Assembly (NCBI GenBank): GCA_965201115.1
Contig: OZ241745.1
Coordinates: forward strand, 2,306,308 to 2,370,307
Source of the DNA: Alphaproteobacteria bacterium
Lineage (GTDB): Bacteria > Pseudomonadota > Alphaproteobacteria > UBA7887
DNA: 64,000 nt
Direction: 5' to 3'
Position numbers and translations under genes: made by a program. The stretch's first letter is position 1. Every line of letters starts with the position of its first letter. The notes under the pieces were generated by a model. That model ran no database searches, was not told the origin of the DNA, and worked only from the letters and a program-made list of their open reading frames with translations. Of the stretch, positions 2,780-58,819 are shown piece after piece.

Positions 2780-5700
2780 GCCGCCCCCCCGCGCGGGGGG
2801 CGCGGATTGAAACTTTCCGTCGCGGATCTGTTGCGCGGCGGCGCGCGCGCCGCCCCCCCGCGCGGGGGGCGCGGATTGAAACCAGCGCACGGGCGGCGGC
2901 GCCCCCCGGGGAGAGGGCCGCCCCCCCGCGCGGGGGGCGCGGATTGAAACCCTGCAGCTGGGCGTTGCAGCGGATGGCGCCGGCGCCGCCCCCCCGCGCG
3001 GGGGGCGCGGATTGAAACTCTTCTTCACTCGAGATCGCGCCCGGGCGCGGGGGCCGCCCCCCCGCGCGGGGGGCGCGGATTGAAACCCTCTCGAGCCCCT
3101 CCACGTCTCCGTGTTCGTCGGGCCGCCCCCCCGCGCGGGGGGCGCGGATTGAAACTGGATCGCGCGGAGGCGCGGAAAGCGGCTTTCCCGGCCGCCCCCC
3201 CGCGCGGGGGGCGCGGATTGAAACGCGGTGGATCGGGCGTACGTCCAGGAGATGACGGCGCCGCCCCCCCGCGCGGGGGGCGCGGATTGAAACCGGGTGC
3301 CGGCGTGGTCATCGCGCATTCGCCGGGCCGCCCCCCCGCGCGGGGGGCGCGGATTGAAACCGCGCCCAGTCCGCGCGCGGCACGGGGCGCCCGTGCCGCC
3401 CCCCCGCGCGGGGGGCGCGGATTGAAACAGGCGGTGCGTGCGCCGCGCCATGACGCGGGGCAGCCGCCCCCCCGCGCGGGGGGCGCGGATTGAAACTCGC
3501 CCCGGGTTCGCGGCTACGCCGCGGCCGGCGGCCGCCCCCCCGCGCGGGGGGCGCGGATTGAAACCGGCCCCGCGCTCGACATGCTGCGCGTGTTTATCGC
3601 CGCCCCCCCGCGCGGGGGGCGCGGATTGAAACATCAAAAGGCGGCGGAAGCGGGATTGCAGGCGAGGCCGCCCCCCCGCGCGGGGGGCGCGGATTGAAAC
3701 TGGTGGTTATGCGGTCGATTCGGAACGACGGCGGCCGCCCCCCCGCGCGGGGGGCGCGGATTGAAACACGTTCCGGTCACAGTTAGTGATATAGATTCCC
3801 GGGGCCGCCCCCCCGCGCGGGGGGCGCGGATTGAAACCACGTAGCCGCCGCAACTGCTGGCGCGGGTGCCGGCCGCCCCCCCGCGCGGGGGGCGCGGATT
3901 GAAACATTTTTTTCTCCTCGGTTGGGGCGGCGGCCCATCGCCGCCCCCCCGCGCGGGGGGCGCGGATTGAAACACCTACGTCGATCGCGCCGATGGGTGG
4001 CGGCGGCGCCGCCCCCCCGCGCGGGGGGCGCGGATTGAAACGCACGACCTGGCCGGCGGGGGGGTCACGGGGCGGCGCCGCCCCCCCGCGCGGGGGGCGC
4101 GGATTGAAACCACGTACCGCGAGCGATAACGCATTCGATTTCGGGCCGCCCCCCCGCGCGGGGGGCGCGGATTGAAACGCATATCGGAACAATTAGACCG
4201 AAGCGGCCGCCGGGGCCGCCCCCCCGCGCGGGGGGCGCGGATTGAAACGTGATGGTCGTCACCAGGCTGCTCCGCCGCGGCGGCCGCCCCCCCGCGCGGG
4301 GGGCGCGGATTGAAACAGCTTCTCAACCAACCGGGCGCAGCGCGCTCCGGGGGGCCGCCCCCCCGCGCGGGGGGCGCGGATTGAAACGCCCGCAGCAGGT
4401 CCTGAACGGTGACGGTCACACCGGCCGCCCCCCCGCGCGGGGGGCGCGGATTGAAACGTGCGCGCCACGCCCACTTCCCAGTCGGCCGCCCCGCCGCCCC
4501 CCCGCGCGGGGGGCGCGGATTGAAACCCGCTATCGGAGAGGTACAGCGGGAGCGGCCCGTTGCCGCCCCCCCGCGCGGGGGGCGCGGATTGAAACATTTC
4601 GTTTCTCCGGCGGCGCGGCGGGCGGCTGGCCGCCCCCCCGCGCGGGGGGCGCGGATTGAAACGAGCGCGAGTTCCGCCGCCGTGGAGCCCGCCGCCAGCG
4701 CCGCCCCCCCGCGCGGGGGGCGCGGATTGAAACATTTCCGCGATCGATCTGCAGCCGGTGGCGGCGAGCCGCCCCCCCGCGCGGGGGGCGCGGATTGAAA
4801 CTTTGCGCAATGGCTTTTGCGAACGAAGGACGGTGCCGCCCCCCCGCGCGGGGGGCGCGGATTGAAACATGTTGAGAAAGGAGATGGCGTTGTCGGTATC
4901 AGGCCGCCCCCCCGCGCGGGGGGCGCGGATTGAAACCCCGGAAACCCTGATGGTTTCCATTCGCGATAAACTGCCGCCCCCCCGCGCGGGGGGCGCGGAT
5001 TGAAACGCTTCCCGACAGGGAAATTCGGCTGTCGCAAAGGGCCGCCCCCCCGCGCGGGGGGCGCGGATTGAAACACGAACAGCTGGAAACGGCGGTCGGC
5101 GGGTTCGGCCGCCCCCCCGCGCGGGGGGCGCGGATTGAAACCAGTCGTCGGGCAGTGCGAGATCGAAGGCGAGATTGCCGCCCCCCCGCGCGGGGGGCGC
5201 GGATTGAAACTGGAAAGTGAAGGATTTTCTTACGAAATCCGGGCCGCCCCCCCGCGCGGGGGGCGCGGATTGAAACGTTACCTGTTCCCCGCACACGCGG
5301 GGATAGACCGGGAGCCGCCCCCCCGCGCGGGGGGCGCGGATTGAAACATTATCTTCTTCTTTCCAAAGACGAAAGCGATAATGCCGCCCCCCCGCGCGGG
5401 GGGCGCGGATTGAAACACCGCCCGCGGCGGCAGCTGTCTCGGCGGCGCGGGCCGCCCCCCCGCGCGGGGGGCGCGGATTGAAACCAGATACGACTGCGGC
5501 GCGGGCCGGCGCACCAGGCCGCCCCCCCGCGCGGGGGGCGCGGATTGAAACGCTTCGAGGCGCGAATTCGCGGTCGGAAGCGATATGCCGCCCCCCCGCG
5601 CGGGGGGCGCGGATTGAAACATTTCGCGGCGTGCTGATGAAGTACGGCGCCATCGGGCCGCCCCCCCGCGCGGGGGGCGCGGATTGAAACTCGGACCCGG

Positions 5701-6637
5701 CCGGCAACGCCAAACTCGCCAAGGGGCCGCCCCCCCGCGCGGGGGGCGCGGATTGAAACGGTGGCGCCGCGCGCCTCGAGCCGCGCCGCCGCCGGCCGCC
5801 CCCCCGCGCGGGGGGCGCGGATTGAAACGGTGGCGCCGCGCGCCTCGAGCCGCGCCGCCGCCGGCCGCCCCCCCGCGCGGGGGGCGCGGATTGAAACGCC
5901 TGCGCTTCCGGGCGGCGCCCCGCCCTGTATTGCCGCCCCCCCGCGCGGGGGGCGCGGATTGAAACCTTTTCCGCTACCATCTCGTTCATGTTAGCGGCGT
6001 GCCGCCCCCCCCCCCCCCGCGCGGGGGGCGCGGATTGAAACCATAAACGGCCTAAATGGGCGCGTGACGCGCGTCGGCCGCCCCCCCGCGCGGGGGGCGC
6101 GGATTGAAACATGAGAAAGAACAGGAAGCGAACGAATGCCAGGCGGGCCGCCCCCCCGCGCGGGGGGCGCGGATTGAAACCGTATTACCGAAGGCGCAGT
6201 TACCCACCGGCGCATGCCGCCCCCCCGCGCGGGGGGCGCGGATTGAAACCGTATTACCGAAGGCGCAGTTACCCACCGGCGCATGCCGCCCCCCCCCGCG
6301 CGGGGGGCGCGGATTGAAACTCGCCGTCGATCGCCGCGCCCTCGGCCTTCGCGGCGCGCCGCCCCCCCGCGCGGGGGGCGCGGATTGAAACAGCGCGGTC
6401 GAGGGGTACTGCCGTGTCTCGGCGCGCCGCCCCCCCGCGCGGGGGGCGCGGATTGAAACCGCGTGAAGAAAGACCGTTGGGAAGGCGCGCACCGGCCGCC
6501 CCCCCCCCCCGCGCGGGGGGCGCGGATTGAAACGAGCAGGTCGATGAAAATCTCGCCGGCGCCCAGGGCCGCCCAGGGCCGCCCAGGGCCGCCCCCCCCC
6601 CCCCCCCCGCGCGGGGGAGGGGGCACCAGCTCTAAAC
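2780..6637 (+). CRISPR. CRISPR array, about 56 repeats and about 55 spacers; repeat G(C)CGCCCCCCCGCGCGGGGGGCGCGGATTGAAAC (33-34 bp), unit 68-70 bp, degenerate terminal repeat at about 6591-6637
   Basis: Regular 68-70 bp periodicity of a conserved palindromic repeat ending GGATTGAAAC (I-C signature); spacers of heterogeneous GC; terminal repeat mutated (…gcgcgggggagggggcaccagctctaaac). Confidence 0.95.
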
Positions 6638-8878
6638 GACCAACGATTCCGAGTCGAGAAACACCGGTCGGTCCCACGTCAGGCCAGTGTCGGGACGGTA
6701 GAGATCGAGACTGCGCAGTACGGCGAACTGCCGTCCAAATTTCTTTTCGTTCACGAATTCGACGGCGCCGGATTCGACGAGCGCGTTTTGCACACGCCGC
6801 GGGACGGGCACGGTATAGGGCTGCAGGCGCCGCGCGACTCCGCCCGGCCTCTCGACCGATTGCAGTTTGCCGAGTAAGCGTTCGGCCTCGCTTCCGCGCT
6901 CCATAGGGCCGCGGTAAGGCACGATCACCGGAATCATGTCGGTTTCGATCATCCGGAACTTCGCCGCCACGGATTCGAACGGGAAGTCGAGTTTCCGCAA
7001 TCTTTCGGCAATCGTCCGGAGTATCCGCTTGGCGTCGAGTTCGTCTGCCTTGGTCCAATACAGTTCGCCAAAGTAATCGCGAATCGCCTCAGGCGAATCC
7101 AGCGCGGAGCAACGGCGCATGACGGCCCGGGCCGCATCGGCGAACTGCGCTACCTCGGGCGGCGGTTTGCGGCCCGCGCTTTCGCCCGGGTCGAATACGA
7201 AGACCTCGCCCGCAAGGGCGCGGCCTTCGCGGTTGCAGCGCCCGGCAGCCTGTACGATCGATTCCAGGCCGGCCCAGGCGCGCCAAACGACCGGAAAATC
7301 CACGTCGACTCCGGCCTCGATCAATGACGTTGCAACGAGCCGTACCGGCGCCCCGTTTTTCAGATCGATGCGCACGGCGTCCAGCGCGTCGCGTCGATGG
7401 GCGGCGCACATGCATGTCGTCAGGTGCCGGGCGCCTTCGGCCTCCCGGATGAGTTCGTAGAGTTCGCGCGCGTGACGGCGCGTGTTGACGATGCAAAGGA
7501 CCTGCGAGGCAGCGCGCAATTGCGCCGACAGCTCGTCGTCGTCCACTCTGCCCCGGTCGCTTATCGCGACGCGCTTGAGCGTTCGGTACAGGCGTTCGGG
7601 TTCGGGCGCGATTTCGCGCATGTCGGCGAAGCCGCCGGTAAAACCGTCCGCCTTGCCCAAGGCGGGTTGCGTGGCGGTGCAGAGAACGACGGTGGTTCGC
7701 CAGTTGCGCGCCAGCTCGTCGAGCGCGGCGACGCACGGCCGCAACAGTTTCAGGGGCAACGTTTGCGCCTCGTCGAGAATGACCACGCTGTTCGCAATGT
7801 TGTGCAACTTCCGGCAGCGCGACGGGCGGTTGGCGAACAGGCTTTCGAAGAACTGTACGGCGGTCGTGACGACGACCGGCGCATCCCAGTTCTCCATCGC
7901 CAACCGCAGCTTGTCCCTCGCTTCGCGCCTGCCGATACGGTCTTCGTCGAACGCGCTGTGGTGCTCGATTACAAAGTCGGTTTCCGCGCCCTCGCCGAGC
8001 GCCTCGCGAAACGCCGCGGCGGTTTGCTCGACGATGCTCGTGAACGGGATGACGTAGATGACGCGCTCCATGCCGTGGCGCGCGGCGTGGCGCAGCGCGA
8101 ACGCCAGCGACGAAAGCGTCTTGCCGCCGCCGGTCGGAACGGTGAGCGTGAACAAGCCCGGCGCGGCCGCTGCCTTCTCCCATGCATGCTTCAGCACCTC
8201 GGCGCGGGCGGCATTCACCGCACCGGGTTCGGCGCCGGCCGCAAGCTCGCGAAGATACGCGTTGAGCCGCGCCGCCAATTCTTCGATGGGCGGATGGCTC
8301 CCGCGCATCGGATCATCGCCGTCAAGCCGGGCGAAATAGGCTTCTGTGTCGAGATAGTCGGCGTCCACAAGGGCGGAAAACACCATGCGCGTGAGAAAAG
8401 CCGCGCCGAAGGCCCCGCCTTCCCGGTCGCGGGGTTTCATGAGCGGCATTTTCGGTTCCGGCAGCGCGATCTCGCGCCGCCACGCGGGGTCGGGTTTCGG
8501 AACCCGCTTCGAAAGACGATCCTCCAGAGCGGCGATTCGGCCTTTTCCGCCGGATACGCCGTCGGCGAGGCCCGCGTGGTGGCCCGCCACGCAAAACGCC
8601 AGGATTTTTCCGATCCGCCCGCCGTAGCGCTCCATCGCGATTTGCGCCCCGGCGGTCGAGTGATCGACACGACCGGGGTTGCCGGCGAGCCGCTTCCTGA
8701 ATTCGGCCGTGTATTTTCCGACGTCGTGCAACAGGCCTGCCGCGCGCCCGAAATCGGCGCAGCCGGCCGATTCGAGAAAGGCGGCGGCCCGCTTGCCTGT
8801 TTCTTCGAGATGAGCGGACAGGATATGCCAGTCCCGACGATCATCGCCGCCGCTGCTATGCGCGTACCAAGTACTCAT
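6632..8878 (-). CDS. cas3: CRISPR-associated helicase/nuclease Cas3 (HD domain + DEAD/DEAH helicase)
   Basis: Start MSTWYAHSS at 8878; HD motif (LLHDVGKY…HHAG), Walker A (PTGGGKT), DEAQ box; ORF track's extra 63 N-terminal codons judged read-through. Confidence 0.85.
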   Translation of the reverse strand: MSTWYAHSSGGDDRRDWHILSAHLEETGKRAAAFLESAGCADFGRAAGLLHDVGKYTAEFRKRLAGNPGRVDHSTAGAQIAMERYGGRIGKILAFCVAGHHAGLADGVSGGKGRIAALEDRLSKRVPKPDPAWRREIALPEPKMPLMKPRDREGGAFGAAFLTRMVFSALVDADYLDTEAYFARLDGDDPMRGSHPPIEELAARLNAYLRELAAGAEPGAVNAARAEVLKHAWEKAAAAPGLFTLTVPTGGGKTLSSLAFALRHAARHGMERVIYVIPFTSIVEQTAAAFREALGEGAETDFVIEHHSAFDEDRIGRREARDKLRLAMENWDAPVVVTTAVQFFESLFANRPSRCRKLHNIANSVVILDEAQTLPLKLLRPCVAALDELARNWRTTVVLCTATQPALGKADGFTGGFADMREIAPEPERLYRTLKRVAISDRGRVDDDELSAQLRAASQVLCIVNTRRHARELYELIREAEGARHLTTCMCAAHRRDALDAVRIDLKNGAPVRLVATSLIEAGVDVDFPVVWRAWAGLESIVQAAGRCNREGRALAGEVFVFDPGESAGRKPPPEVAQFADAARAVMRRCSALDSPEAIRDYFGELYWTKADELDAKRILRTIAERLRKLDFPFESVAAKFRMIETDMIPVIVPYRGPMERGSEAERLLGKLQSVERPGGVARRLQPYTVPVPRRVQNALVESGAVEFVNEKKFGRQFAVLRSLDLYRPDTGLTWDRPVFLDSESLVV

Positions 8879-9216
8879 TGGCGCCCGGCGGCGCGGGCGT
8901 CGTTCGAAAGGTCCATGGCATCCCGCCCGTATCCATGCCGTGCTTGGCCACGAGGGTACGATGGTCGAGTGTTGTTGTCTAATACCGTTGGCTATCGATA
9001 CCGACGGGTAGCCGTCGGCATGGACTGGGCAGTTGTCTCCGGGGCGCGATCCGGACGCCGCGGGCATCCTGCCCGCGCACTCTCGCCAGTCTCGCCGCCG
9101 ATGTGCGGTCGGGGCGCCCGCGGTCCCGGGCGGCGGCGCCGGCGCGGCGGGCGGTTGCCAAGGGGCGGGGGGATGGTGTGTATTGGGGCCGCGGCAGTCA
9201 CCGGGGAGGCGGGGCG

Positions 9217-10809
9217 ATGATGGGAATGGCGCGGTTGGCGGCGGGGGCGTGGGCGGCGCTGGCGGCGGTGCTCGCGGGCGCGGCGGGGGGCGCGGGGGCG
9301 CAGGACGGGGCGGTCTTGCGCATCGTTCCGCACGCCGACCTCAAGAACCTCGACCCCATATGGACCACCGCCTATATCAGCCGCAACCACGGCTACATGA
9401 TCTACGACACGCTGTTCGCGCTCGACGAAAACCTCCGGCCCCGGCCCCAGATGGTCGAGGACTGGACCGTCAGCGCCGACGGCCTCGCGTGGACCTTCCG
9501 CCTGCGCGAGGGCCTCGCGTGGCACGACGGCGCGCCGGTGACCGCCGCCGATTGCGTCGCCTCCATCCGCCGCTGGGGCGCCCGCGACGGCATGGGCCAA
9601 AAGCTCATGGACGCAACCGAAAGCCTCGCCGTCATCGACGACCGCACATTCGCGCTCACGCTGGCGGCGCCTTACGGGCTGGTGCTGCAATCGCTCGGCA
9701 AGATTTCGTCCAACGTGCCGTTCATGATGCCCGAACGGCTGGCGGCGACGGACCCGTTCGAGCAGGTTCCCGAAACCGTGGGTTCGGGGCCGTTTATGTT
9801 CGCCGCCGACGAGTGGGTTCCGGGGGCGCGGGCGGTGTATGTGCGCAACCCGGCCTATGTTCCGCGGGCCGAGCCGCCTTCGTTCGCGGCCGGGGGCAAG
9901 GTCGCGAAGGTCGAGCGCGTGGAATGGCACTACATCCCCGACGCGGCGACGGCGATGAACGCGCTGATCGGGGGGGAGATCGATTATTTCGAGCTCCCGC
10001 CGCACGATCTTCTGCCGGTCATGGAGGCGTCTCCGGGCGTTTCGGTGCGGACGCTGGACCGGCTGGGCACTCAGGGCTGGGTGCGCCTGAACCACCGCCT
10101 GCCGCCGTTCGACGATGCGCGGGCGCGGCGGGCGGTTTTGTGGGCCTTGGATCAGACCGAGTATTTGCAGGCGACGGTGGGCAACCCGGCGTATTACCGG
10201 GCCTGCGCGGCGTATTTCGGCTGCGGGACGCCGCTCGAGAGCGCCGCGGGTTCGGAGGCGCTGGCGGCGCGGGACCTCGATCGCGCGCGGGCGCTGGTGG
10301 CGGAGTCGGGATACGCCGGCCACCGCGTGGTCGTGTTGCAGGCGACGGACATCGCGATCAACAGCGGGGCGGCGCTGGTGACGGCGCGCCTGTTGCGGGA
10401 GATCGGCTTCGAGGCGGAGCTTCAGGCGATGGACTGGAGCACGCTCACCTCGCGCCGCGCCGTCAGCGACCCCGTCGAACAGGGCGGCTGGAACGTATTC
10501 ATCACATGGTGGATCGGCGCCGACATTCTCAACCCCGTCGCGAATATCGGGGTTTCCGGGGGTTGTCTCGAGCGCGCGTGGTTCGGGTGGCCTTGCGACC
10601 CGGAGATCGAGGCGTTGCGCGACCGTTTCGCGCGGGCGGCGGGGCCGGACGAGCGGCGCGCGCTGGCGGAGGCGGTGCAGCGGCGCGCCTACGAAATCGT
10701 TACTTACGGCAATTTCGGCCAATGGTTCAATCCCATAGCCTACCGCGACGAGCTCGCCGGGATGATCGAATCCCCCGTTCCCTTCTTCTGGAACATAGAA
10801 AAACGCTAG
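9217..10809 (+). CDS. ABC transporter substrate-binding protein, family 5 (peptide/glutathione/nickel type)
   Basis: Start chosen at MMGMARL (signal peptide) at 9217; SBP_bac_5-like sequence; followed by two permeases and fused ATPase. Confidence 0.75.
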   Translation: MMGMARLAAGAWAALAAVLAGAAGGAGAQDGAVLRIVPHADLKNLDPIWTTAYISRNHGYMIYDTLFALDENLRPRPQMVEDWTVSADGLAWTFRLREGLAWHDGAPVTAADCVASIRRWGARDGMGQKLMDATESLAVIDDRTFALTLAAPYGLVLQSLGKISSNVPFMMPERLAATDPFEQVPETVGSGPFMFAADEWVPGARAVYVRNPAYVPRAEPPSFAAGGKVAKVERVEWHYIPDAATAMNALIGGEIDYFELPPHDLLPVMEASPGVSVRTLDRLGTQGWVRLNHRLPPFDDARARRAVLWALDQTEYLQATVGNPAYYRACAAYFGCGTPLESAAGSEALAARDLDRARALVAESGYAGHRVVVLQATDIAINSGAALVTARLLREIGFEAELQAMDWSTLTSRRAVSDPVEQGGWNVFITWWIGADILNPVANIGVSGGCLERAWFGWPCDPEIEALRDRFARAAGPDERRALAEAVQRRAYEIVTYGNFGQWFNPIAYRDELAGMIESPVPFFWNIEKR

Positions 10810-10830
10810 CGGCCGCGCGGGAGCGGCGCG

Positions 10831-11772
10831 GTGTTCGCTTTCGTCCTGCGCCGCGTGCTGGCGACGATTCCCGTCATGGGCATCGTCGCGGTCTTCGTGT
10901 TCCTGCTGCTGCATCTCAGCCCGGGCGACCCCGCCACGGTCATCGCGGGCGACTATGCGAGCCCGGAAGACATAGAGCGCATCCGCGCCCGGCTCGGTCT
11001 CGACCGGCCCCTGCACGTCCAGTTCGCGTCGTGGATCGGGCGGATCGCGCAAGGCGACCTGGGAACCTCGATCTTCTCCAACCTGCCGGTGTCGCGGCTG
11101 ATCGCGCAGCGCCTGGAGCCGACGCTGTCGCTCGCGCTGCTCACGCTGGCCTTCACGGTGGCGGTCGCGGTGCCGCTCGGCACGGTGGCGGCGTGGCGCG
11201 CGGGGACGTGGATCGACCGCGCGGTCATGGCGTTCGCCGTGGTGGGCTTTTCCGTTCCGGTGTTCGTGCTCGGCTATATCCTGATCCAGGTCTTCGCGAT
11301 CGGCGCGGGGTGGTTTCCGGTACAGGGCTACGCGCCGCTGTCGGAAGGCGCCGGGCCGTTTCTCCACCGGCTGATCCTGCCCGCGCTGGCGCTGAGCGCG
11401 GTGTATATCGCGCTGATCGCGCGTATCGCCCGCGCCAGCGTGCTGGAGGCGCTGGCCGAAGACCACGTGCGCACCGCGCGCGCGAAAGGCCTGCCGGAGC
11501 GCCTGGTGCTGCTGCGCCACGCGCTGGCCAACGCCGCCGCGCCGATCGTCACGGTCATCGGCATCGGCTTCTCGCTGCTGATCGGCGGCGTGGTCGTGAC
11601 CGAAAGCGTGTTCAACATTCCCGGCCTCGGCCGGCTGACCGTCGATGCGGTGCTGCGGCGCGACTACCCGGTAATCCAGGGCATCGTGCTGGTGTTCTCG
11701 GCGGCCTGCGTGGCGGTGAACCTCCTGGTCGATCTGCTCTATACGGCGTTCGACCCGAGAATCCGCTACTGA
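10831..11772 (+). CDS. ABC transporter permease (DppB/GsiC-like)
   Basis: 313 aa, multiple TM segments, EAA-like loop (…ARAKGLPERLVLLRHALAN). Confidence 0.8.
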   Translation: MFAFVLRRVLATIPVMGIVAVFVFLLLHLSPGDPATVIAGDYASPEDIERIRARLGLDRPLHVQFASWIGRIAQGDLGTSIFSNLPVSRLIAQRLEPTLSLALLTLAFTVAVAVPLGTVAAWRAGTWIDRAVMAFAVVGFSVPVFVLGYILIQVFAIGAGWFPVQGYAPLSEGAGPFLHRLILPALALSAVYIALIARIARASVLEALAEDHVRTARAKGLPERLVLLRHALANAAAPIVTVIGIGFSLLIGGVVVTESVFNIPGLGRLTVDAVLRRDYPVIQGIVLVFSAACVAVNLLVDLLYTAFDPRIRY

Positions 11773-48119: not shown

Positions 48120-49214
48120 ATGCGTTGGATCGAAGCCGGCCCCGCGCTCGCCGTCCTGCTCGCCCTGGCCGCCTGCGAAACGGACGAGCCCTCCGGCGGC
48201 GCCGAGGCCGGCGACGGCGCCGCATCGGAAGCCTACGAAGCCGCCGTCGCCGCCTGGGAGGGCGGGGATTCCGCGGCCGCCGCCGCCGGTTTCCGCGCGC
48301 TCGCCGACGCCGGCGACCCGGCGGCGCAAACCGCGCTGGCCACACTCTACGCCAACGGCGAGGGCGTGGCGCGCGACGACGCCGAAGCCGCCGCGTGGTT
48401 TCGCCGCGCCGCCGAACAAGACGGGGTCGTCGCCCAATACTATCTCGGCGTCATGTACGACAGCGGGCGCGGAGTGGACGAAGACGCGGCAACGGCGGCC
48501 GCATGGTTTCGCCGCGCGGCCGAGGCCGGACACGCCAAGGCGCAGTTCGACCTCGGCGCCATGTACGACGCCGGACGCGGCGTCGCGCAAGACGACGCGC
48601 AAGCCGCCGCCTGGTACCGCCGCGCGGCGGAGGCCGGACTTCCGGCCGCGCAATTCAACGCGGCAGTCTTGTACGACACCGGCCGCGGCGTGGAGCAGGA
48701 CGCGGCGGAGGCCGCCGCGTGGTACCGCCGCGCGGCCGAAGCCGGACACCCCGCCGCCCAGCTGGCCGTCGGCATGATGCACGACCTCGGCCGCGGCGCC
48801 GCGCAAGACGATGCGCAAGCCGCCATCTGGTATCTCCGCGCGGCGGAACAGGACCACCCCGCCGCGCAGTTCAACATCGGCGCCATGTACGACGCCGGAC
48901 GCGGCGTGGAGCAGGACGACGCGGAAGCGGCGGCGTGGTACCGCCGCGCGGCCGAAGCCGGACACCCCGCCGCCCGGTTCAATCTCGCCCTCATGCGCGA
49001 GCAGGGCCGCGGGGTCGAGCGGGATTATGTGCGCGCCCACATGTGGTTCGCGCTCGCCGCCGCCGGGTTCGCGCCGCCGGAGGCCGGGGAAGAGGATTTG
49101 CGCGCCGTCGCGGAGCGCAACCGCGATCGCGTCGCGGAGCGACTCTCGGCCGGGGAGCTCGAACGCGCCCGCGCCCTCGCGCGCGACTGGCGCCCCGCCG
49201 GCGATGCCCGGTAA
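48120..49214 (+). CDS. Sel1-repeat (SLR/TPR-like) lipoprotein
   Basis: Lipobox LLALAAC; about 7 tandem 36-aa Sel1 repeats (…AAWYRRAAEAGHPAAQFNLG.MY..GRGV.QD…). Confidence 0.8.
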   Translation: MRWIEAGPALAVLLALAACETDEPSGGAEAGDGAASEAYEAAVAAWEGGDSAAAAAGFRALADAGDPAAQTALATLYANGEGVARDDAEAAAWFRRAAEQDGVVAQYYLGVMYDSGRGVDEDAATAAAWFRRAAEAGHAKAQFDLGAMYDAGRGVAQDDAQAAAWYRRAAEAGLPAAQFNAAVLYDTGRGVEQDAAEAAAWYRRAAEAGHPAAQLAVGMMHDLGRGAAQDDAQAAIWYLRAAEQDHPAAQFNIGAMYDAGRGVEQDDAEAAAWYRRAAEAGHPAARFNLALMREQGRGVERDYVRAHMWFALAAAGFAPPEAGEEDLRAVAERNRDRVAERLSAGELERARALARDWRPAGDAR

Positions 49215-53656: not shown

Positions 53657-54483
53657 CGACCGACGCCCAAGCCAAGCACCACCCCTATCATCTCGTGGAC
53701 CCGAGCCCGTGGCCGCTGATGGGCGCCTTCGCCGCGCTGCTGCTTACCTTCGGCGCGGTGGTCTATATGCACGACGCGACCGGCGGGCCGTGGATCGCCA
53801 TCGCCGGCGCGATACTCGTCGCCGCGACCATGGTCGTCTGGTGGCGCGACGTGGTGCGCGAGGCCACGTTCGAGAACCATCACACGCCCGTCGTGCAGCT
53901 CGGCCTGCGCTACGGCATGGCGCTGTTCATCGCGTCGGAGGTCATGTTTTTCGCCGCGTGGTTCTGGGCCTTTTTCGACGCCTCGATCTTCGCCGACGAG
54001 GCCATCCAGTTCGGCCGCGTCGAGGCCAATGGCGGCCAGTGGCCCCCCGCGGGCATCGAGGTGTTCGACCCGTGGCATCTGCCCCTGCTCAACACGGTCA
54101 TATTGTTGACGTCGGGCGCCACCGCCACGTGGGCGCACCACGCCCTGCGCGAGGGCAACAGGAAGCATCTCCTTCTCGGCCTGTGGTGTACCGTCGCCCT
54201 GGGCGCGCTGTTCACCGCCGTGCAAGCCTACGAATACGCGCACGCCCCCTTCGGCTTCTCCGACGGCATCTACCCCTCGACCTTCTTCATGGCCACCGGC
54301 TTCCACGGCGCGCACGTAATCATCGGCACGGTCTTCCTGATCGTCTGCCTCGCCCGCGCCTACAAGGATCACTTCAAGCCCGACCATCACTTCGGCTTCG
54401 AAGCGGCCGCCTGGTACTGGCACTTCGTCGACGTGGTGTGGCTGTTCCTGTTCTTCTGCATCTACGTCTGGGGCGCGGGGTAA
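53653..54483 (+). CDS. ctaE: Cytochrome c oxidase subunit III
   Basis: ATG 53653 (MTTDAQAKHHPYHLVDPSPWP…), canonical COX3. Confidence 0.9.
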   Translation: MTTDAQAKHHPYHLVDPSPWPLMGAFAALLLTFGAVVYMHDATGGPWIAIAGAILVAATMVVWWRDVVREATFENHHTPVVQLGLRYGMALFIASEVMFFAAWFWAFFDASIFADEAIQFGRVEANGGQWPPAGIEVFDPWHLPLLNTVILLTSGATATWAHHALREGNRKHLLLGLWCTVALGALFTAVQAYEYAHAPFGFSDGIYPSTFFMATGFHGAHVIIGTVFLIVCLARAYKDHFKPDHHFGFEAAAWYWHFVDVVWLFLFFCIYVWGAG

Positions 54484-54660
54484 CCCGGTCGCCGGCGCGG
54501 CAGCGAACCGACCGATGGATCTCGACGGCGCCGAGGCCGCGTCGCTGGGCGCCCGCGGTTTCGTCGTCCGTGCGGGGCATAAAGCGGCGCTCCGGGCTCG
54601 CGCCGACGGCGTCCGCGCGCGCCGTTGCAACAAGCCTGACCGTACGATAGCGTTCGGCGC

Positions 54661-55866
54661 ATGGTCCCCGATTCGCCCGTAAAGGACAGCATTCCGCGGC
54701 TGCAACAGCTGCTGCCGCACATGCGCGCGCAGCTCGTCGGGTTGCGTGGCGGCTCGACATTCGAGCAAGCGCGGCGGCGTTACGACGCCACGGTTCAGGC
54801 GCTCGTCGCGCACGGCCGCGGGCGAGCGGCCAGCCGGATGACGGGCGCGGATCGATACTGGGCGCCGACGCGCGACCTGCTCGACGAAACAATGCGACTG
54901 AACTTCGTGGAAAGGCAAAAACTGCCGTCGACGCGCAAGCACATGGATGCGTACCGCGGTTGCCGTTACAAGCTCACCCCTGTCGGCGAGCGTGTGGCCG
55001 CCGAAGCGCGCGAGAACGTTGCCGCCTTCTCCGATACGCTCGCCGACGCCATCTACAACGCGCACCCGCACTTCCGGACTTTCGTCAGCATTCTCGAGAA
55101 CGGCCCGGTCTTCTACCCGCAAATCACCGAAGGCGAGGTCGAGCGGTCGCGCCGCCGAGACGACGGTACCGAGCGTTGGGTCGATTACGCCGCCGACGGG
55201 CTGAGGCGCTGTGCGCTGACCGAGAGCGAAACCGCGATTGTCCGCGAAACCGTAATCTCCGTTGTGCGGCGCAGGTTCGGCCGCCGCCGCGGCAAACAGC
55301 CGACAAGCAAGGAGCTCGCGGACACCTTGAATGACGCTTTCGAGCAAGCCGCGATGCGGCTTCGCGGTCTGTCAATCGGCGCGACCGGGTTTAATATACT
55401 GCGAAGTTGGGGTTCGCAACTCAGGCTGCTCGACCAATCCCGTTACGTTTCACGCTACGAAGGGCGTAACATCGTATGGCTGGCCGCCGATATATGTAAC
55501 AGCAATGGTTTTCGTATCCGACGCCGCACACTCGACGGATACCGGCGCAAGGCGTCGAAGGCCGTGATAACGGCCTACCGCGCATTGGCCGCGGCGTCGG
55601 ACAGCACTCTGAATGCGCCTTACATCCCGATTTACCGCATTCGAGCGGATGCCGCATTTCTCTGCCGGGTGACCCGCGCTCTCGTGGATCTCGTGATCGA
55701 ACGTCTCACGGCAGAGAACGCACCCGATCTCGGGTTCGATATATATCTCCATCTTGGCCACACCTTGCAACCGTCATCCGAACCCGTGTATCGGCGCGGC
55801 GGCCAGCGCCATTACGAAATGACGATGCAACCGAGAAATCGCCTGGGAGGACGACATGCCGCATGA
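54661..55866 (+). CDS. Hypothetical protein (401 aa), first gene of a lower-GC three-gene operon
   Basis: No recognisable motif; stop overlaps next gene's start by 11 nt. Confidence 0.5.
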   Translation: MVPDSPVKDSIPRLQQLLPHMRAQLVGLRGGSTFEQARRRYDATVQALVAHGRGRAASRMTGADRYWAPTRDLLDETMRLNFVERQKLPSTRKHMDAYRGCRYKLTPVGERVAAEARENVAAFSDTLADAIYNAHPHFRTFVSILENGPVFYPQITEGEVERSRRRDDGTERWVDYAADGLRRCALTESETAIVRETVISVVRRRFGRRRGKQPTSKELADTLNDAFEQAAMRLRGLSIGATGFNILRSWGSQLRLLDQSRYVSRYEGRNIVWLAADICNSNGFRIRRRTLDGYRRKASKAVITAYRALAAASDSTLNAPYIPIYRIRADAAFLCRVTRALVDLVIERLTAENAPDLGFDIYLHLGHTLQPSSEPVYRRGGQRHYEMTMQPRNRLGGRHAA

Positions 55867-57130
55867 TCCCTTCGACCATATGGAGGAAGCCTGGGGCCTG
55901 GATGGCAACCCCTTCCCGTCGGAAGCTGTAAATGCTCCGGATCAGCCGTATAGCCCGAATGTGTTCGATAACGAGCTCGACGAATTTCGGCGAAAGCTCG
56001 TTCGCGGCTGCATTGGCGGCAGTGCGAACATCGGTTTTCTGTGGTCGCAGGGCATCCGCGCGGATACCGGGTTCGGCAAGACTACGTTGATGCGCCAGAT
56101 CGCCAAGGAGATAAATCGCGACTTCGGCGCCGGTACGCTTGCGAAGGCCGGTGTACAGCCCGGCAAGCTGGCGCCTGTCGCCGCAGCTTACTCCAACCTG
56201 GATACCATGGACGCCACGGGGCTCTATCCCGTCTTGTTCAACGCTGTCGTCGATCTCGCTCAAGCGCCCTCCGGCGAGCTGGATGTGCTGGACAAGGCGA
56301 GGGAACGTATAGCGCGGACGCTTGGAGCGGACGACGGCGGAGCGCTCGACAGTCATATCAGGGATACGTGGTTGCGCATCGCAGGAACTGCGGGGCCGCT
56401 TCGACCCGAACTCACAACCGCGTTCGCCGGCGGCGGCATGCAAAAGCTTCGCGAAGTTTTGAGTACTGCTTCGGTGGCGCGGCGGGTGCGGTCGGGTCAT
56501 CAGTACTTCCAATTCGCGTTATGCATTTTGGCGGCGGCCGGGATCGATCATCTCTACTTGATGATCGATCAGCTTGAGGATCTTGCGACGAACAAGTCTA
56601 TCTCATCGGCAAAGCGATCCCGTGAAATAGGGCGTATTCGCGATATGCTGGAGGGGCCGCCTTACGCGAACAGAGTCCATTTTATTTTCACGTTTCATAA
56701 TGAGGCAGCGCGGGTGCTTGCAAATTACTGGACCCAAAACCGACTGCCTTCGTTCGAGATTTCCCCCGGCAATACGGCGTCTGTCGTGGTGTTGCGCGGT
56801 CTCAAAGACGATGAACAGGTGCGCCAGCTGCTTCGCGTGTATCTTGAGGATCATCGCGACGACAATAGCCGCGACAGCGAGCTAACGCCCTTTGAACCTG
56901 AAGCGTTAGGCGTTCTGAAGAGCGTATCCGATGGCCGGGTCGGAGTTTTGTTGAATCGCGCACACGTTTTGATTCATTCCGCAGCAGAACGAGGCCTGCC
57001 TCGTATAACCGGCGAATTCGCACAACGATTTTTCGATGGCGCCGTTCAGGATAACTACGACGAGCAAGCAACAGAGGGCGAGACCGATGAACCGGGCAAT
57101 ATCGACGATCTGCTGCTGGGCGAGCGATAG
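55856..57130 (+). CDS. P-loop NTPase (Walker A GFGKTT; putative Walker B LYLMIDQLED), 424 aa
   Basis: Strong SD GGGAGGA before ATG 55856; Walker A at about aa 70, hydrophobic-D(Q/E) box at about aa 236; lower GC than flanks. Confidence 0.6.
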   Translation: MPHDPFDHMEEAWGLDGNPFPSEAVNAPDQPYSPNVFDNELDEFRRKLVRGCIGGSANIGFLWSQGIRADTGFGKTTLMRQIAKEINRDFGAGTLAKAGVQPGKLAPVAAAYSNLDTMDATGLYPVLFNAVVDLAQAPSGELDVLDKARERIARTLGADDGGALDSHIRDTWLRIAGTAGPLRPELTTAFAGGGMQKLREVLSTASVARRVRSGHQYFQFALCILAAAGIDHLYLMIDQLEDLATNKSISSAKRSREIGRIRDMLEGPPYANRVHFIFTFHNEAARVLANYWTQNRLPSFEISPGNTASVVVLRGLKDDEQVRQLLRVYLEDHRDDNSRDSELTPFEPEALGVLKSVSDGRVGVLLNRAHVLIHSAAERGLPRITGEFAQRFFDGAVQDNYDEQATEGETDEPGNIDDLLLGER

Positions 57131-57133
57131 GCG

Positions 57134-57913
57134 ATGATCGAATCCGGAGTCTCCAAGATACTTGCCGAGTGCGCTCTTGATATATATGTTCTTGCACAGG
57201 CAACGCAACGATTCCCGGACGCGCTCGTGAACGGCCGGGTTTGGGAACGAGTTGTCGGCGAATCTGTCCGACGCCCGGGCTTGGGCAAATACACGCAAGC
57301 GGCCGGTAAAACCACACTGTTCAATTATTCTTCGGCGTCGGGAGCAGAACACGAGCTGGATGCTGTGGCCGCGGGTTCGAGGGACGCTGTCATACTCGAG
57401 TGCAAGTCGCAGGCGACCGGGCCGACGAAGGCCGACGCGGCGCTTTCCCATGAGAAAGTAATGGACTTCTATTGCGAACGCGCGGAAGCCGTCGCAGGCG
57501 AGCGATGGCAGAGACTGATGGTATCGTCCACTCCCGTTTCCGAACCTGTTCGTCGGTTCTGCGTACATCTCGGAATAATTTTATGCGATCCAAGCCTCCT
57601 GCCGTTGCCGGTCGTGGTATGGGTTGCCAGCCAGCCGAGCGCCGATCGACAATTACGGGATCCACTCCTTCAGGAAGCCGTACGTATGGGAGAGCCGGCA
57701 TTATCATCCATGCAGGAACGCTGGATGTACGATCCTGCCGCGCAAGAGATCCGGTTTCGCCCGAGGATCTTGACTGCCGGCGAGATCGACGACCTGTTGT
57801 GGCTTCAAAGCGAGCTCGGACAGGATATCCTTGAACTTTACGAGCGTGCCCGGCCGGGCTGGCTGGCAAGGAAAACGATGGAAGCATATAACAAACTGGT
57901 AAAATTTTCCTGA
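57134..57913 (+). CDS. PD-(D/E)xK nuclease-fold protein (259 aa), third gene of operon
   Basis: Motif …GAEHELDAVAAGSRDAVILECKSQ… (D … E-x-K spacing typical of restriction-endonuclease-like fold); starts 4 nt after previous stop. Confidence 0.5.
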   Translation: MIESGVSKILAECALDIYVLAQATQRFPDALVNGRVWERVVGESVRRPGLGKYTQAAGKTTLFNYSSASGAEHELDAVAAGSRDAVILECKSQATGPTKADAALSHEKVMDFYCERAEAVAGERWQRLMVSSTPVSEPVRRFCVHLGIILCDPSLLPLPVVVWVASQPSADRQLRDPLLQEAVRMGEPALSSMQERWMYDPAAQEIRFRPRILTAGEIDDLLWLQSELGQDILELYERARPGWLARKTMEAYNKLVKFS

Positions 57914-58102
57914 GTATGCTACGTGGCCTGAAATACCCGCAGTAAAGTAACGGTTCCGCCGCGCAACCGGGGGGCGAAGACGGTAACCCCTGTATACCGA
58001 TCGGCGCTGGAGACGAAGCCCATTTTGGGATAGTGTGCCTGAGAAGCGGCTGGCGAATCAAGCAGAGTCCCGATTGAAATAGCTGTAGAACCGGTCGACG
58101 GA

Positions 58103-58285
58103 TCATGAACAGTTATCGTTTGTCTCAGGCAGTTCGCTGACGATATCGTCGCCTTTCAACCATTCGGCAACCGTTTCCAGCGTATCGGCGATTCGCGTTT
58201 TCGATGTCGTCCTGACGGCGCACTCCCGTAATGCGAGTACGCGCCGGCTCAGCTCCTTCAATCTGGATATGTCTCGATCATCCAT
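58103..58285 (-). CDS. Small hypothetical ORF (60 aa) in low-GC gap
   Basis: Only ORF with plausible codon usage in the 57914-58819 gene-poor segment; no motif. Confidence 0.2.
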   Translation of the reverse strand: MDDRDISRLKELSRRVLALRECAVRTTSKTRIADTLETVAEWLKGDDIVSELPETNDNCS

Positions 58286-58819
58286 TCCCCGGTTTTCGGA
58301 GATCTTTTCCGGCGGAAAATCCGGTCGGCTCGCGGGTTACCAGAAAACGTGGCAATCGTGACCGTGCCAAAACAACCATGGACCGGTATGACGGCGCGAC
58401 GGCACGGAAATACAAGATTGGGAGCCTCCGGAAGCGAACGGTTGTGAAACCGGTAACGCAAGCCCTTCGCATGGCGAAAGCGGCGCACCTGCAATTTCGG
58501 CATCGTACTCTTTCCGTTGAAGACGGCCATCAAGCGACGGCGGGGCGCCCTGCGCAAGCGTCCGGTTATGGGGCTTTGGGCTGTTATGGTGGGGGTTTGT
58601 GTTTCCAGTTCCACGGCATGAGTTCATAACCCGCGTGCGCAAAGGCCTCCACACGGTCGTTGAGGAAGACGCCGCAGGCAGCGGGCGGGTCGGCGGCGGC
58701 CGTAGCGGCGGCTGCGCGCTCGACGATCAAGCAGCGGCGGAAGCAGCGCGCGCGGCGGAGCGCCGCCGGGGCGCCGGCGGTCCCGGGGCCTTGAACGCCG
58801 GGAGCGGGCGGGGCAGACT

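Follow-up and report, generated by a model that had tools for sequence, protein, structure and literature searches.

The window, i.e., the whole 64,000-nt stretch of alphaproteobacterial DNA that was analyzed, carries three open reading frames on the forward strand after the cox operon, between ctaE and a gene for a 2-hydroxyacid dehydrogenase, which an earlier note had proposed to be a candidate defence or stress system. Gene 1 (54661..55866) codes for a 401-aa protein of several predicted winged-helix domains, a proposed DNA-recognition subunit and possible autoregulator; gene 2 (55856..57130) for a 424-aa P-loop NTPase; and gene 3 (57134..57913) for a 259-aa predicted PD-(D/E)xK nuclease that has a helical domain at its C-terminus and is proposed as the effector. 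The positions and lengths of all three were recovered exactly as the earlier note gave them. The genes are translationally coupled: the ATG of gene 2 (55856) falls within the last stretch of gene 1, creating the 11-nt overlap previously reported, with the Shine-Dalgarno sequence GGGAGG 6 nt upstream of that ATG, and the tight spacing claimed for the second junction amounts to 3 nt between the stop codon of gene 2 and the ATG of gene 3. The GC content is 0.629, 0.579 and 0.569 for genes 1, 2 and 3, respectively, against 0.68–0.70 in the 5-kb flanks, so that the earlier figure of about 50–58% holds for genes 2 and 3 but not for gene 1, which is at 63%. GC3 shows the same gradient more steeply (0.73, 0.65 and 0.60, versus 0.90–0.93 for ctaD, ctaE and the dehydrogenase gene).

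Low GC and GC3, together with comparison to sister strains, delineate a strain-variable foreign segment of ~4.2 kb (54484..58690). Its limits, set by that comparison, are the stop codon of ctaE (~54484) on the 5' side and a point ~130 nt upstream of the dehydrogenase gene (~58690) on the 3' side. In one locus (L164), whose flanks are 98.7–99.1% identical to the window, the match stops at 54481 and resumes at 58691, with other cargo between; two further loci (L092 and L093) diverge from the window at 54486, their tails representing a third haplotype at the site; and the contig of another (L166) ends at 58690. In a sister strain this very site is occupied by an adenine methyltransferase (matching PADLOC HmaB at 4e-29, as well as PglX, DUF1156_MTase and MTase_II), partnered by a 246-aa protein without an assigned family. 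The ctaE-dehydrogenase site is a strain-variable hotspot with at least three alternative cargoes in strains at least 97.6% identical in their flanks. Because its GC3 is foreign and sister strains hold other cargo at the same site, the cassette is horizontally acquired, in agreement with the earlier description of an insertion after the cox operon. A search of 185,579 species genomes recovered no empty site anchored on the dehydrogenase gene, the nearest species being 74–78% identical and lacking the synteny with ctaE.

The stretch downstream of the trio (57914–58819), previously described as a gene-poor gap, proved to contain the remains of a vsr (very-short-patch-repair endonuclease) gene, encoded on the minus strand (58103..58614; Pfam Vsr, PF03852, E 3.3e-13, 49.7 bits against a cutoff of 27). 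As aligned by tblastn, it switches frame between HGCF and WHGH, has an in-frame TAA at 58337–58339, and shows the catalytic motif PDIVF altered to PNLVF; judged by these lesions it is a pseudogene and no functional Vsr endonuclease, a neighbor in the same foreign segment that lies outside the trio. We rejected vsr as a regular companion of the trio, since it occurs nearby in just one of the trio loci searched. Scans of the window found no match to tRNA genes or Rfam families, no promoter or terminator signal exceeding those of shuffled sequences, and, as the earlier note had already remarked, no integrase. The segment is not bounded by terminal direct or inverted repeats, a 16-nt pair at 54479 and 58326 being no better than many chance pairs.

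The trio is named by none of the curated databases searched (Pfam, NCBIfam, PHROGs and PADLOC 2.0.0), just as no named system had been put forward for it before. The first three gave no above-threshold match for genes 1, 2 or 3, and PADLOC 2.0.0 (a 2023 copy; a later catalogue might list the trio) gave none at E <= 1 for the three window proteins and none at E <= 0.01 for ten distant relatives of the NTPase. Profile searches against PDB sequences produced no significant match to the families of genes 1, 2 or 3, and the trio is described nowhere in the literature that we searched.

In the predicted structure, gene 1 has several winged-helix domains in a row that together make up a single DNA-recognition module, and its nearest multi-domain structural match is the recognition module of FokI. 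Thus modeled, gene 1 resembles the FokI/DndG/SspB-like recognition modules, and its earlier casting as a specificity or sensor partner is plausible because the protein appears to be built of winged-helix DNA-binding domains. At the sequence level, it has no profile match to SspB or DndG/DptG in PADLOC or Pfam at E <= 1, libraries which we assume to contain models for these families.

Gene 2 displays both nucleotide-binding motifs attributed to it earlier: a Walker A motif, ADTGFGKTTLM (G72-x-G74-K75-T76), and a Walker B-like hydrophobic-Asp box, HLYLMIDQLEDL, with D238-Q-L-E241-D242. Residues G72, G74, K75, T76, D238, E241 and D242 are invariant across 51 sequences, and P19, G72, K75, D238, H281 and W292 remain so even in relatives of 19–50% identity; the C-terminal tail is acidic and conserved (DIDDLLLG). 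No member exceeds the Pfam gathering threshold for AAA_16, NACHT, ORC-CDC6-like or BrxC_BrxD domains. Sub-threshold matches are recurrent, with AAA_16 weakly recovered in 45 of 51 members (19.5 bits for the window protein, cutoff 32.6) and NACHT in 31 of 51. BrxC_BrxD (PF10923) is likewise weakly matched by 5 of 39 distant relatives (best E 9e-5; in one of them, 16.3 bits against a cutoff of 22.2), and the window protein itself has no match to it. Hence, by sub-threshold likeness, gene 2 may be placed weakly in the AAA_16/ORC-Cdc6/BrxD neighborhood of P-loop NTPases. The family is small and isolated, with 287 matches in 1.84 billion representatives, and an hhalign comparison with the gene 3 family revealed no REase-like insert (probability 0.8%).

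For gene 3, the predicted structure comprises an alpha-beta-beta-beta-alpha-beta core fold followed by a C-terminal helical domain, which agrees with the restriction-endonuclease fold suggested for it earlier. The motif reported as ELD(x9)ILECK is there, with a spacer of 10 residues rather than 9. Across 46 sequences E74, D76, E89 and K91 do not vary, and E38 is nearly invariant; in the model D76 lies just before the strand 77–80, and E89 and K91 within the strand 84–91. A profile search against PDB sequences aligned VC1899, non-significantly, to this motif region. On the strength of the model, gene 3 is a predicted nuclease of the PD-(D/E)xK restriction-endonuclease fold with an intact catalytic motif.

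The co-occurrence of the three families, which the earlier note had proposed as a check, extends well beyond this genome. Of the 35 loci whose flanks suffice, 34 have all three genes, and in 33 the order and strand are also the same; where the flanking DNA permits a test, gene 1 accompanies the NTPase in 51/51 loci and gene 3 in 49/51. This linkage persists down to ~35% NTPase identity, and a 26% identical variant from Azospirillum keeps all three families in permuted order. All three genes have a dN/dS of 0.22 relative to a 95%-identical strain, a value of about 0.22 being the reason for which we regard purifying selection on the trio as indicated. The distribution is patchy across phyla, with 57–66% identity among copies from Deltaproteobacteria, Bryobacterales, Gammaproteobacteria, rhizobia and soil metagenomes, and the carriers include soil bacteria, rhizobia and, apparently, sponge-associated bacteria. 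Such identity across phyla is unusually high conservation for immunity proteins and counts against an immune function.

In its genomic context, the trio is often carried by an ICE or a plasmid, or has AbiE, BREX, Qat or pAgo genes as neighbors. One locus on an integrase/MobA element adjoins genes for BrxL, AAA_13, AbiE and HEPN-AbiV; another adjoins two integrases, AbiE and TrwB/TrwC; a third copy lies on a conjugative element of Sinorhizobium fredii; and metagenomic neighbors include QatA/C, pAgo, AbiE, OloB and PDC-S24/S66. No homologs of the trio were detected in phage GenBank records or IMG/VR viral contigs, and in the plasmid collection the distant Azospirillum variant was the sole match. 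No locus has a methyltransferase inside the cassette, and the 129 neighboring ORFs of 21 loci yielded a single C5-MTase Pfam match. Housekeeping genes alone surround the trio at L001, L006 and L096, and also in the window apart from the vsr relic; such housekeeping-only neighborhoods at several loci count against the immunity reading.

Upstream of gene 1 a palindrome occurs in 15 of 25 loci, as against 1 of 25 controls (e.g., TCAGGTCTCTTGCAAGAGACCTGA). It overlaps the promoter rather than the cassette ends and is the sole conserved non-coding element, no conserved non-coding sequence being detectable downstream of the cassette across loci. The predicted operator over the promoter in most homologous cassettes points to transcriptional autoregulation, for which gene 1 is the simplest candidate. 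In the window, the leader 5' of gene 1 (54486..54660, forward strand) has a -35-like TTGCAA at 54625–54630, followed by AAGCCTGA at 54632–54639, a stretch similar to the right arm of the palindrome that homologous cassettes conserve as an operator. No left arm accompanies it, so that the operator of the window copy appears eroded, and the best palindrome of the window (score 8) is no better than those of shuffled sequences. With its promoter and operator thus degenerate, expression of the window copy is uncertain.

Taken together, we favor, with a probability of roughly 0.6, the interpretation that the trio is an immunity cassette of three components, self-contained and horizontally mobile, which targets DNA and operates without a methyltransferase. 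A role in defence is argued from association (with defence islands, with mobile elements and with an R-M-like module that uses the same hotspot) and from domain logic. Under this scenario, gene 1 would bind DNA and provide target recognition; gene 2 would bind and hydrolyze NTP, assembling on DNA or scanning it with gene 1 and licensing the effector; and gene 3 would cut the recognized DNA. No methyltransferase travels with the trio, and therefore self/non-self discrimination cannot rest on cognate methylation; it would more likely be type-IV-like, with a modification or feature of the invader DNA being recognized, or else abortive. In the simplest case of autoregulation, gene 1 would also regulate its own operon via the palindromic operator.

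A bolder version, to which we attach only tentative weight, is that the trio represents a new class of methyltransferase-less "restriction", in which an ORC/BrxD-like NTPase and a FokI/SspB-type reader scan DNA and license the nuclease only on DNA carrying or lacking a feature other than host methylation. Hypermodified phage DNA, a modified backbone, or an intermediate of replication or transfer could provide that feature. If true, the trio would amount to the scanning module of the Ssp/Dnd and BREX-type systems in minimal, free-standing form.

The strongest competing explanation, which we consider rather unlikely, is that the trio is a competition or stabilization module of mobile elements, either targeting incoming plasmids and ICEs, as Wadjet and Lamassu/DdmABC do, or serving as an addiction module of its carrier, with phage defence being secondary. 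It would account for the frequent residence of the trio on conjugative or mobilizable elements, with VirB/Trb, TrwB/C, MobA, TraD or a resolvase nearby, for its consistent absence from the phage collections, and for the operator and autoregulation pattern, which is typical of addiction modules. The winged-helix likenesses of gene 1 also include the kleisins MukF and ScpA; however, each of these matches is confined to one winged-helix domain, the trio is accompanied by no SMC-like or coiled-coil ATPase, and many copies stand alone in chromosomes, at a great distance from recognizable mobile elements. Defence systems are also common ICE cargo, and therefore the genomic context does not separate this explanation from the immunity reading.

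It seems quite improbable that the trio instead serves to move a small selfish element, its nuclease being TnsA-like, its ATPase TnsC/MuB-like and its DNA-binding protein the selector of targets. Such an element would explain how the insertion could fall right at the stop codon of ctaE with no integrase, the precise position relative to the flanking genes, the lack of an integrase at several loci and the compactness of the cassette (~3.25 kb in all loci), and there is a very weak PHROG match to a "DNA transposition protein" ATPase (E 0.19). Against this, the three cassette genes contain no DDE or other transposase or recombinase domain, conserved terminal repeats and target-site duplications were not found, and the sole conserved non-coding element sits over the promoter. 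The sister-strain hotspot holds unrelated cargo and an IS630-like remnant (recognized by eye only), which points to a source of the turnover other than the trio. A Tn7-like TnsA/TnsB/TnsC module was rejected, there being neither a DDE transposase nor conserved element ends. Finally, a housekeeping complex for DNA repair or chromosome maintenance (e.g., a NucS-like mismatch endonuclease acting together with an ATPase and a protein that binds DNA), which the earlier note had set against its own proposal in case it was conserved at this locus, is very improbable given an extremely patchy distribution (287 NTPase representatives among 1.84 billion clusters), the foreign GC3, presence and absence varying among strains at least 97.6% identical, and the want of synteny in the nearest species.

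If the immunity interpretation is confirmed, the trio would constitute a compact three-protein DNA-targeting immunity system that is invisible to Pfam, NCBIfam, PHROGs and PADLOC 2.0.0. The locus also records a defence hotspot directly after a core respiratory operon. With its small reader, NTPase switch and nuclease on separate proteins, it could be a tractable model for the cooperation of ORC/BrxD-like ATPases with FokI/DndG/SspB-type readers, which to our knowledge is still an open question for BREX, Ssp and Dnd.

Among known systems, restriction-modification of types I–III needs a linked cognate methyltransferase, whereas the trio has none in any locus. The likeness to McrBC-type NTP-dependent (type IV) restriction is one of analogy and not of membership: the trio lacks a McrB-type GTPase signature or a Pfam or PADLOC match to it, and its reader is a separate 400-aa protein rather than an N-terminal domain of the NTPase. 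BrxD is a stand-alone ORC-Cdc6 AAA+ ATPase (PMC12839542). Gene 2 is similar in size (about 420–470 aa) to BrxD/PglY (PF10923) of type 2 BREX, and both are stand-alone and without DNA-binding domains; however, all matches of the gene 2 family are below the gathering score, the window protein has none, and no PglZ, PglX or BrxHI is linked to the trio. [quoted passage not shown] These share with the trio an ORC/Cdc6-like ATPase (putatively so in gene 2), an REase-fold nuclease that is predicted to be active in the trio, mobility and a patchy distribution, but HerA/FtsK is absent from the trio loci, and the ATPase of the trio is short (424 aa), shows nothing suggestive of an REase-like insert and has an acidic tail, not a wHTH, at its end. 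With respect to the Ssp and Dnd systems, SspA/SspD (sulfur modification), SspE and DndF/DndH are absent beside the trio, whose partner is a small PD-(D/E)xK nuclease. Moreover, genes 1 and 2 have no match at E <= 1 in PADLOC, which we understand to include Ssp and Dnd/Dpt models. What SspB-SspC and the DndG of DndFGH have in common with the trio is the architecture of a separate multi-winged-helix reader paired with a stand-alone P-loop ATPase (PMC10853773), which is ORC/Cdc6-like in those systems and putatively so in the trio.

ORF analysis placed the three genes of the cassette on the forward strand exactly where an earlier note on this DNA had put them. Gene 1 (401 aa) spans 54661-55866, gene 2 (424 aa) 55856-57130 and gene 3 (259 aa) 57134-57913. 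The overlap and SD sequence described there are also present, with gene 2 starting 11 nt inside gene 1 and GGGAGG lying 6 nt upstream of that start; gene 3 begins 3 nt after the stop of gene 2. The composition of the cassette is clearly foreign, the GC of genes 1, 2 and 3 being 0.63, 0.58 and 0.57 against 0.68-0.70 in the 5-kb flanks, and their GC3 0.73, 0.65 and 0.60, whereas ctaD, ctaE and the 2-hydroxyacid dehydrogenase gene reach 0.90-0.93. The cassette thus lies below its flanks as had been claimed, but gene 1 is less GC-poor than was stated. Elsewhere in the window, an ORF upstream of ctaC holds a tandem array of 5.4 copies of a 108-nt (36-aa) unit (48444-49024), which by eye resembles a Sel1/TPR-type repeat (LG.MY..G.GV.QD...A..WY..AA..G) and appears ordinary.

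None of the three proteins has a significant match in Pfam, NCBIfam, PADLOC 2.0.0 or PHROGs, and profile searches of PDB sequences returned nothing significant. They define three unnamed, strongly conserved protein families (488, 199 and 65 matches, respectively), whose matches are all annotated 'hypothetical' and carry no Pfam domain. Gene 1 encodes a predicted winged-helix DNA-binding protein. By its motifs the product of gene 2 is assigned as a P-loop NTPase: the Walker A and Walker B residues are invariant in the family alignment, and sub-threshold similarity was seen consistently to AAA_16 (45/51 members) and also to NACHT (31/51). An exhaustive profile search recovered only 287 relatives of this protein among 1.84 billion representatives, and 5 of 39 distant full-length family members gave weak matches to BrxC_BrxD, BrxD being a stand-alone ORC/Cdc6 AAA+ ATPase (PMC12839542). 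Gene 3 encodes a predicted nuclease of the PD-(D/E)xK type whose active site is intact; the spacer of its ELD...ILECK motif is 10 residues long rather than the 9 counted earlier. No REase-like insert related to gene 3 was detected in gene 2 by hhalign. The last residues of the NTPase (~409-424; 57080-57127) form an acidic tail that includes the conserved motif DIDDLLLG, with D417, D418 and L420 invariant; this tail might serve to dock a partner subunit. In one 501-aa relative from the representative library (P0400), a C-terminal fragment of the NTPase is joined to a DDE transposase domain of the IS1595 type (PF12762, E 3e-13); an insertion sequence has probably interrupted this gene.

To assess linkage, loci were gathered from encoding-contig look-ups, a metagenome scan and one plasmid match, and searched with HMMs of the three families; the counts include the near-duplicate contigs L001/2/3/98/125, L004/5 and L006/7. 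Gene 1 was found in all 51 loci whose contig extends far enough upstream of the NTPase and gene 3 in 49 of 51 that extend far enough downstream, and the complete trio was present in 34 of the 35 with sufficient sequence on both sides, bearing out the co-occurrence that had been proposed as a check; in 33 of these 35 the order is gene 1-gene 2-gene 3 on a single strand. The cassette measures ~3.25 kb in nearly every locus, and linkage is kept down to ~35% NTPase identity. A ~26%-identical trio on Azospirillum brasilense p1 (L008 ~7860-11231) has the permuted order NTPase, winged-helix protein, nuclease. The linkage of the three genes is obligate and the trio is a unit. No methyltransferase linked to it was found across the loci examined. 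Three loci look like decaying cassettes: L123 lacks gene 3 although 4 kb of downstream DNA is present, and the gene 3 copies of L102 and L100 are truncated. Two Mesorhizobium loci (L004 12046-12315, L005 11033-11302) bear an extra 89-aa ORF that shares 4 nt with the end of gene 3, has no Pfam match and is absent from the other loci.

The site after ctaE is variable among close relatives, represented by contigs from metagenome records labelled PANK22 and ROBB21 and presumably derived from a sponge-associated alphaproteobacterium. Contigs L089-L091, 95-99% identical to the window, have the same cassette there. Contig L164, with flanks 98.7% and 99.1% identical, matches the window only to 54481 and again from 58691; in place of window 54482-58690 it holds a different 4.1-kb low-GC segment (L164 2137-6228), so that the cassette is indeed absent from this position in a relative, as had been suggested for checking. 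Its cargo comprises a 752-aa DNA adenine methyltransferase (PADLOC HmaB 4e-29, PglX, DUF1156_MTase, MTase_II) and a 246-aa protein without assigned identity; an apparent IS630-type HTH remnant was noted by eye at ~5501-6070. Over the cox genes, contigs L092 and L093 show 98.9% and 97.6% identity; at the ctaE stop codon they part from both the window and L164. Their tails (L092 4056-4230, L093 3559-3714), where the contigs end, are 93% identical to each other and match neither of the two, forming a third haplotype. Therefore, at least three cargoes alternate at one site, and since one of them is R-M-like, this is the signature of a defence hotspot. Contigs break exactly at the segment boundaries (L092-L094 on the left, L166 on the right at 58690), and inspection of the junctions revealed neither repeats nor att-like sites.

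The same foreign segment contains, at 58103-58614 on the reverse strand, what its sequence indicates to be a decayed vsr gene, so the gene-poor gap noted earlier downstream of gene 3 is not empty. An above-threshold Pfam Vsr match (E 3e-13) covers 58258-58614, and tblastn with the intact Vsr of locus L026 revealed a single reading frame in the N-terminal half, a frame shift of 1 nt at HGCF|WHGH, an in-frame stop codon (TAA, 58337-58339) and a change of the catalytic motif PDIVF to PNLVF (catalytic Asp to Asn); the C-terminal part coincides with a 60-aa ORF (58103-58285). As just one of the searched trio loci has a vsr in its vicinity, the gene is a neighbour of the system rather than part of it. 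The window trio itself retains every invariant residue of the three families at family-norm lengths. Relative to a 95%-identical strain, the three genes all give dN/dS values of 0.22-0.23 and the cox genes 0.02-0.11, and the dS of genes 1 and 2 approximates that of the cox genes; these values indicate purifying selection on a cassette that predates the split of the two strains.

In 15/25 homologous loci (among them L128 ~1360-1395, L109, L100, L110, L095, L130, L135, L137, L144, L153 and L159) the start of gene 1 is preceded, at a distance of 14-54 nt, by a strong palindrome; only 1/25 downstream control regions has such an element, and the mean score is 10.5 against 5.1 in shuffles. This conserved operator-like element, for example TCAGGTCTCTTGCAAGAGACCTGA, overlaps a -35-like hexamer; in many cases TTGCAA or TTGACA of this kind stands at its centre and a TATAAT-like -10 follows ~17 nt downstream. 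The arms vary by lineage with symmetry preserved (GGTCTC/GAGACC, CGTCTC/GAGACG, GGTATC/GATACC, GGGTCT/AGACCC), which fits the operator of a dimeric cassette-encoded protein, for which gene 1 is the obvious candidate. At the equivalent window position (54625-54639) only TTGCAA (54625-54630) and the right-arm-like AAGCCTGA are left; the operator appears eroded in this copy, so expression may need read-through from ctaE, and in the interval from ctaE to gene 1 a pattern scan picked up nothing resembling a terminator.

Carriers of the trio include Deltaproteobacteria, Bryobacterales, Gammaproteobacteria, Mesorhizobium, Sinorhizobium and many soil metagenomes, their NTPases being 57-66% identical to that of the window. 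The Mesorhizobium copy belongs to an element that encodes an integrase, MobA and TraD, and its neighbours there are BrxL, an AAA_13 ATPase, AbiEi/AbiEii and HEPN-AbiV; in another genome, two integrases and AbiE precede it and a ResIII helicase and TrwB/TrwC follow; the Sinorhizobium fredii copy is carried by a conjugative element, next to a resolvase. The neighbours at 21 metagenome loci include QatA/QatC, class I pAgo, AbiE, OloB, PDC-S24/S66, a type II methyltransferase, integrases, a Mutator transposase and a T4SS coupling protein, interspersed with ordinary metabolic genes. Other copies stand alone amid housekeeping genes, and none was found in 50,697 phage records or in IMG/VR viral contigs. 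The trio is mobile and its neighbourhoods are of defence type.

We favor, with a probability of roughly 0.6, the reading that the trio provides DNA-targeting immunity. The winged-helix protein would be the reader of target DNA, and probably also of its own operator, the NTPase an NTP-dependent switch or scanner, and the nuclease the effector. Because there is no methyltransferase, discrimination of self from non-self would be type-IV-like or abortive. That the trio instead serves competition between mobile elements, or addiction, we consider unlikely. A role as transposition machinery is highly improbable, and housekeeping repair can hardly be credited. As a DNA-targeting immunity system, the trio is an experimentally tractable and well-supported candidate, one of many candidate defence systems.

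The nearest parallels come from four known kinds of system. SspB-SspC and DndG likewise pair a winged-helix reader with an ATPase, but the Ssp/Dnd enzymes are missing from the trio. The neighbourhoods combining Orc/CDC6, REase and wHTH, with or without HerA/FtsK (PMC10853773), follow a similar logic, the trio being without HerA/FtsK. The same is true of McrBC-type NTP-dependent restriction, whose McrB signatures are absent, and of BrxD-like stand-alone ATPases in relation to gene 2, with PglZ/PglX absent. For each of the four, the trio fails at least one tested feature of membership, profile matches being among the missing items. By analogy, the trio would work like the Ssp/Dnd, Orc/CDC6-REase, McrBC and BrxD systems, while fitting under none of them.
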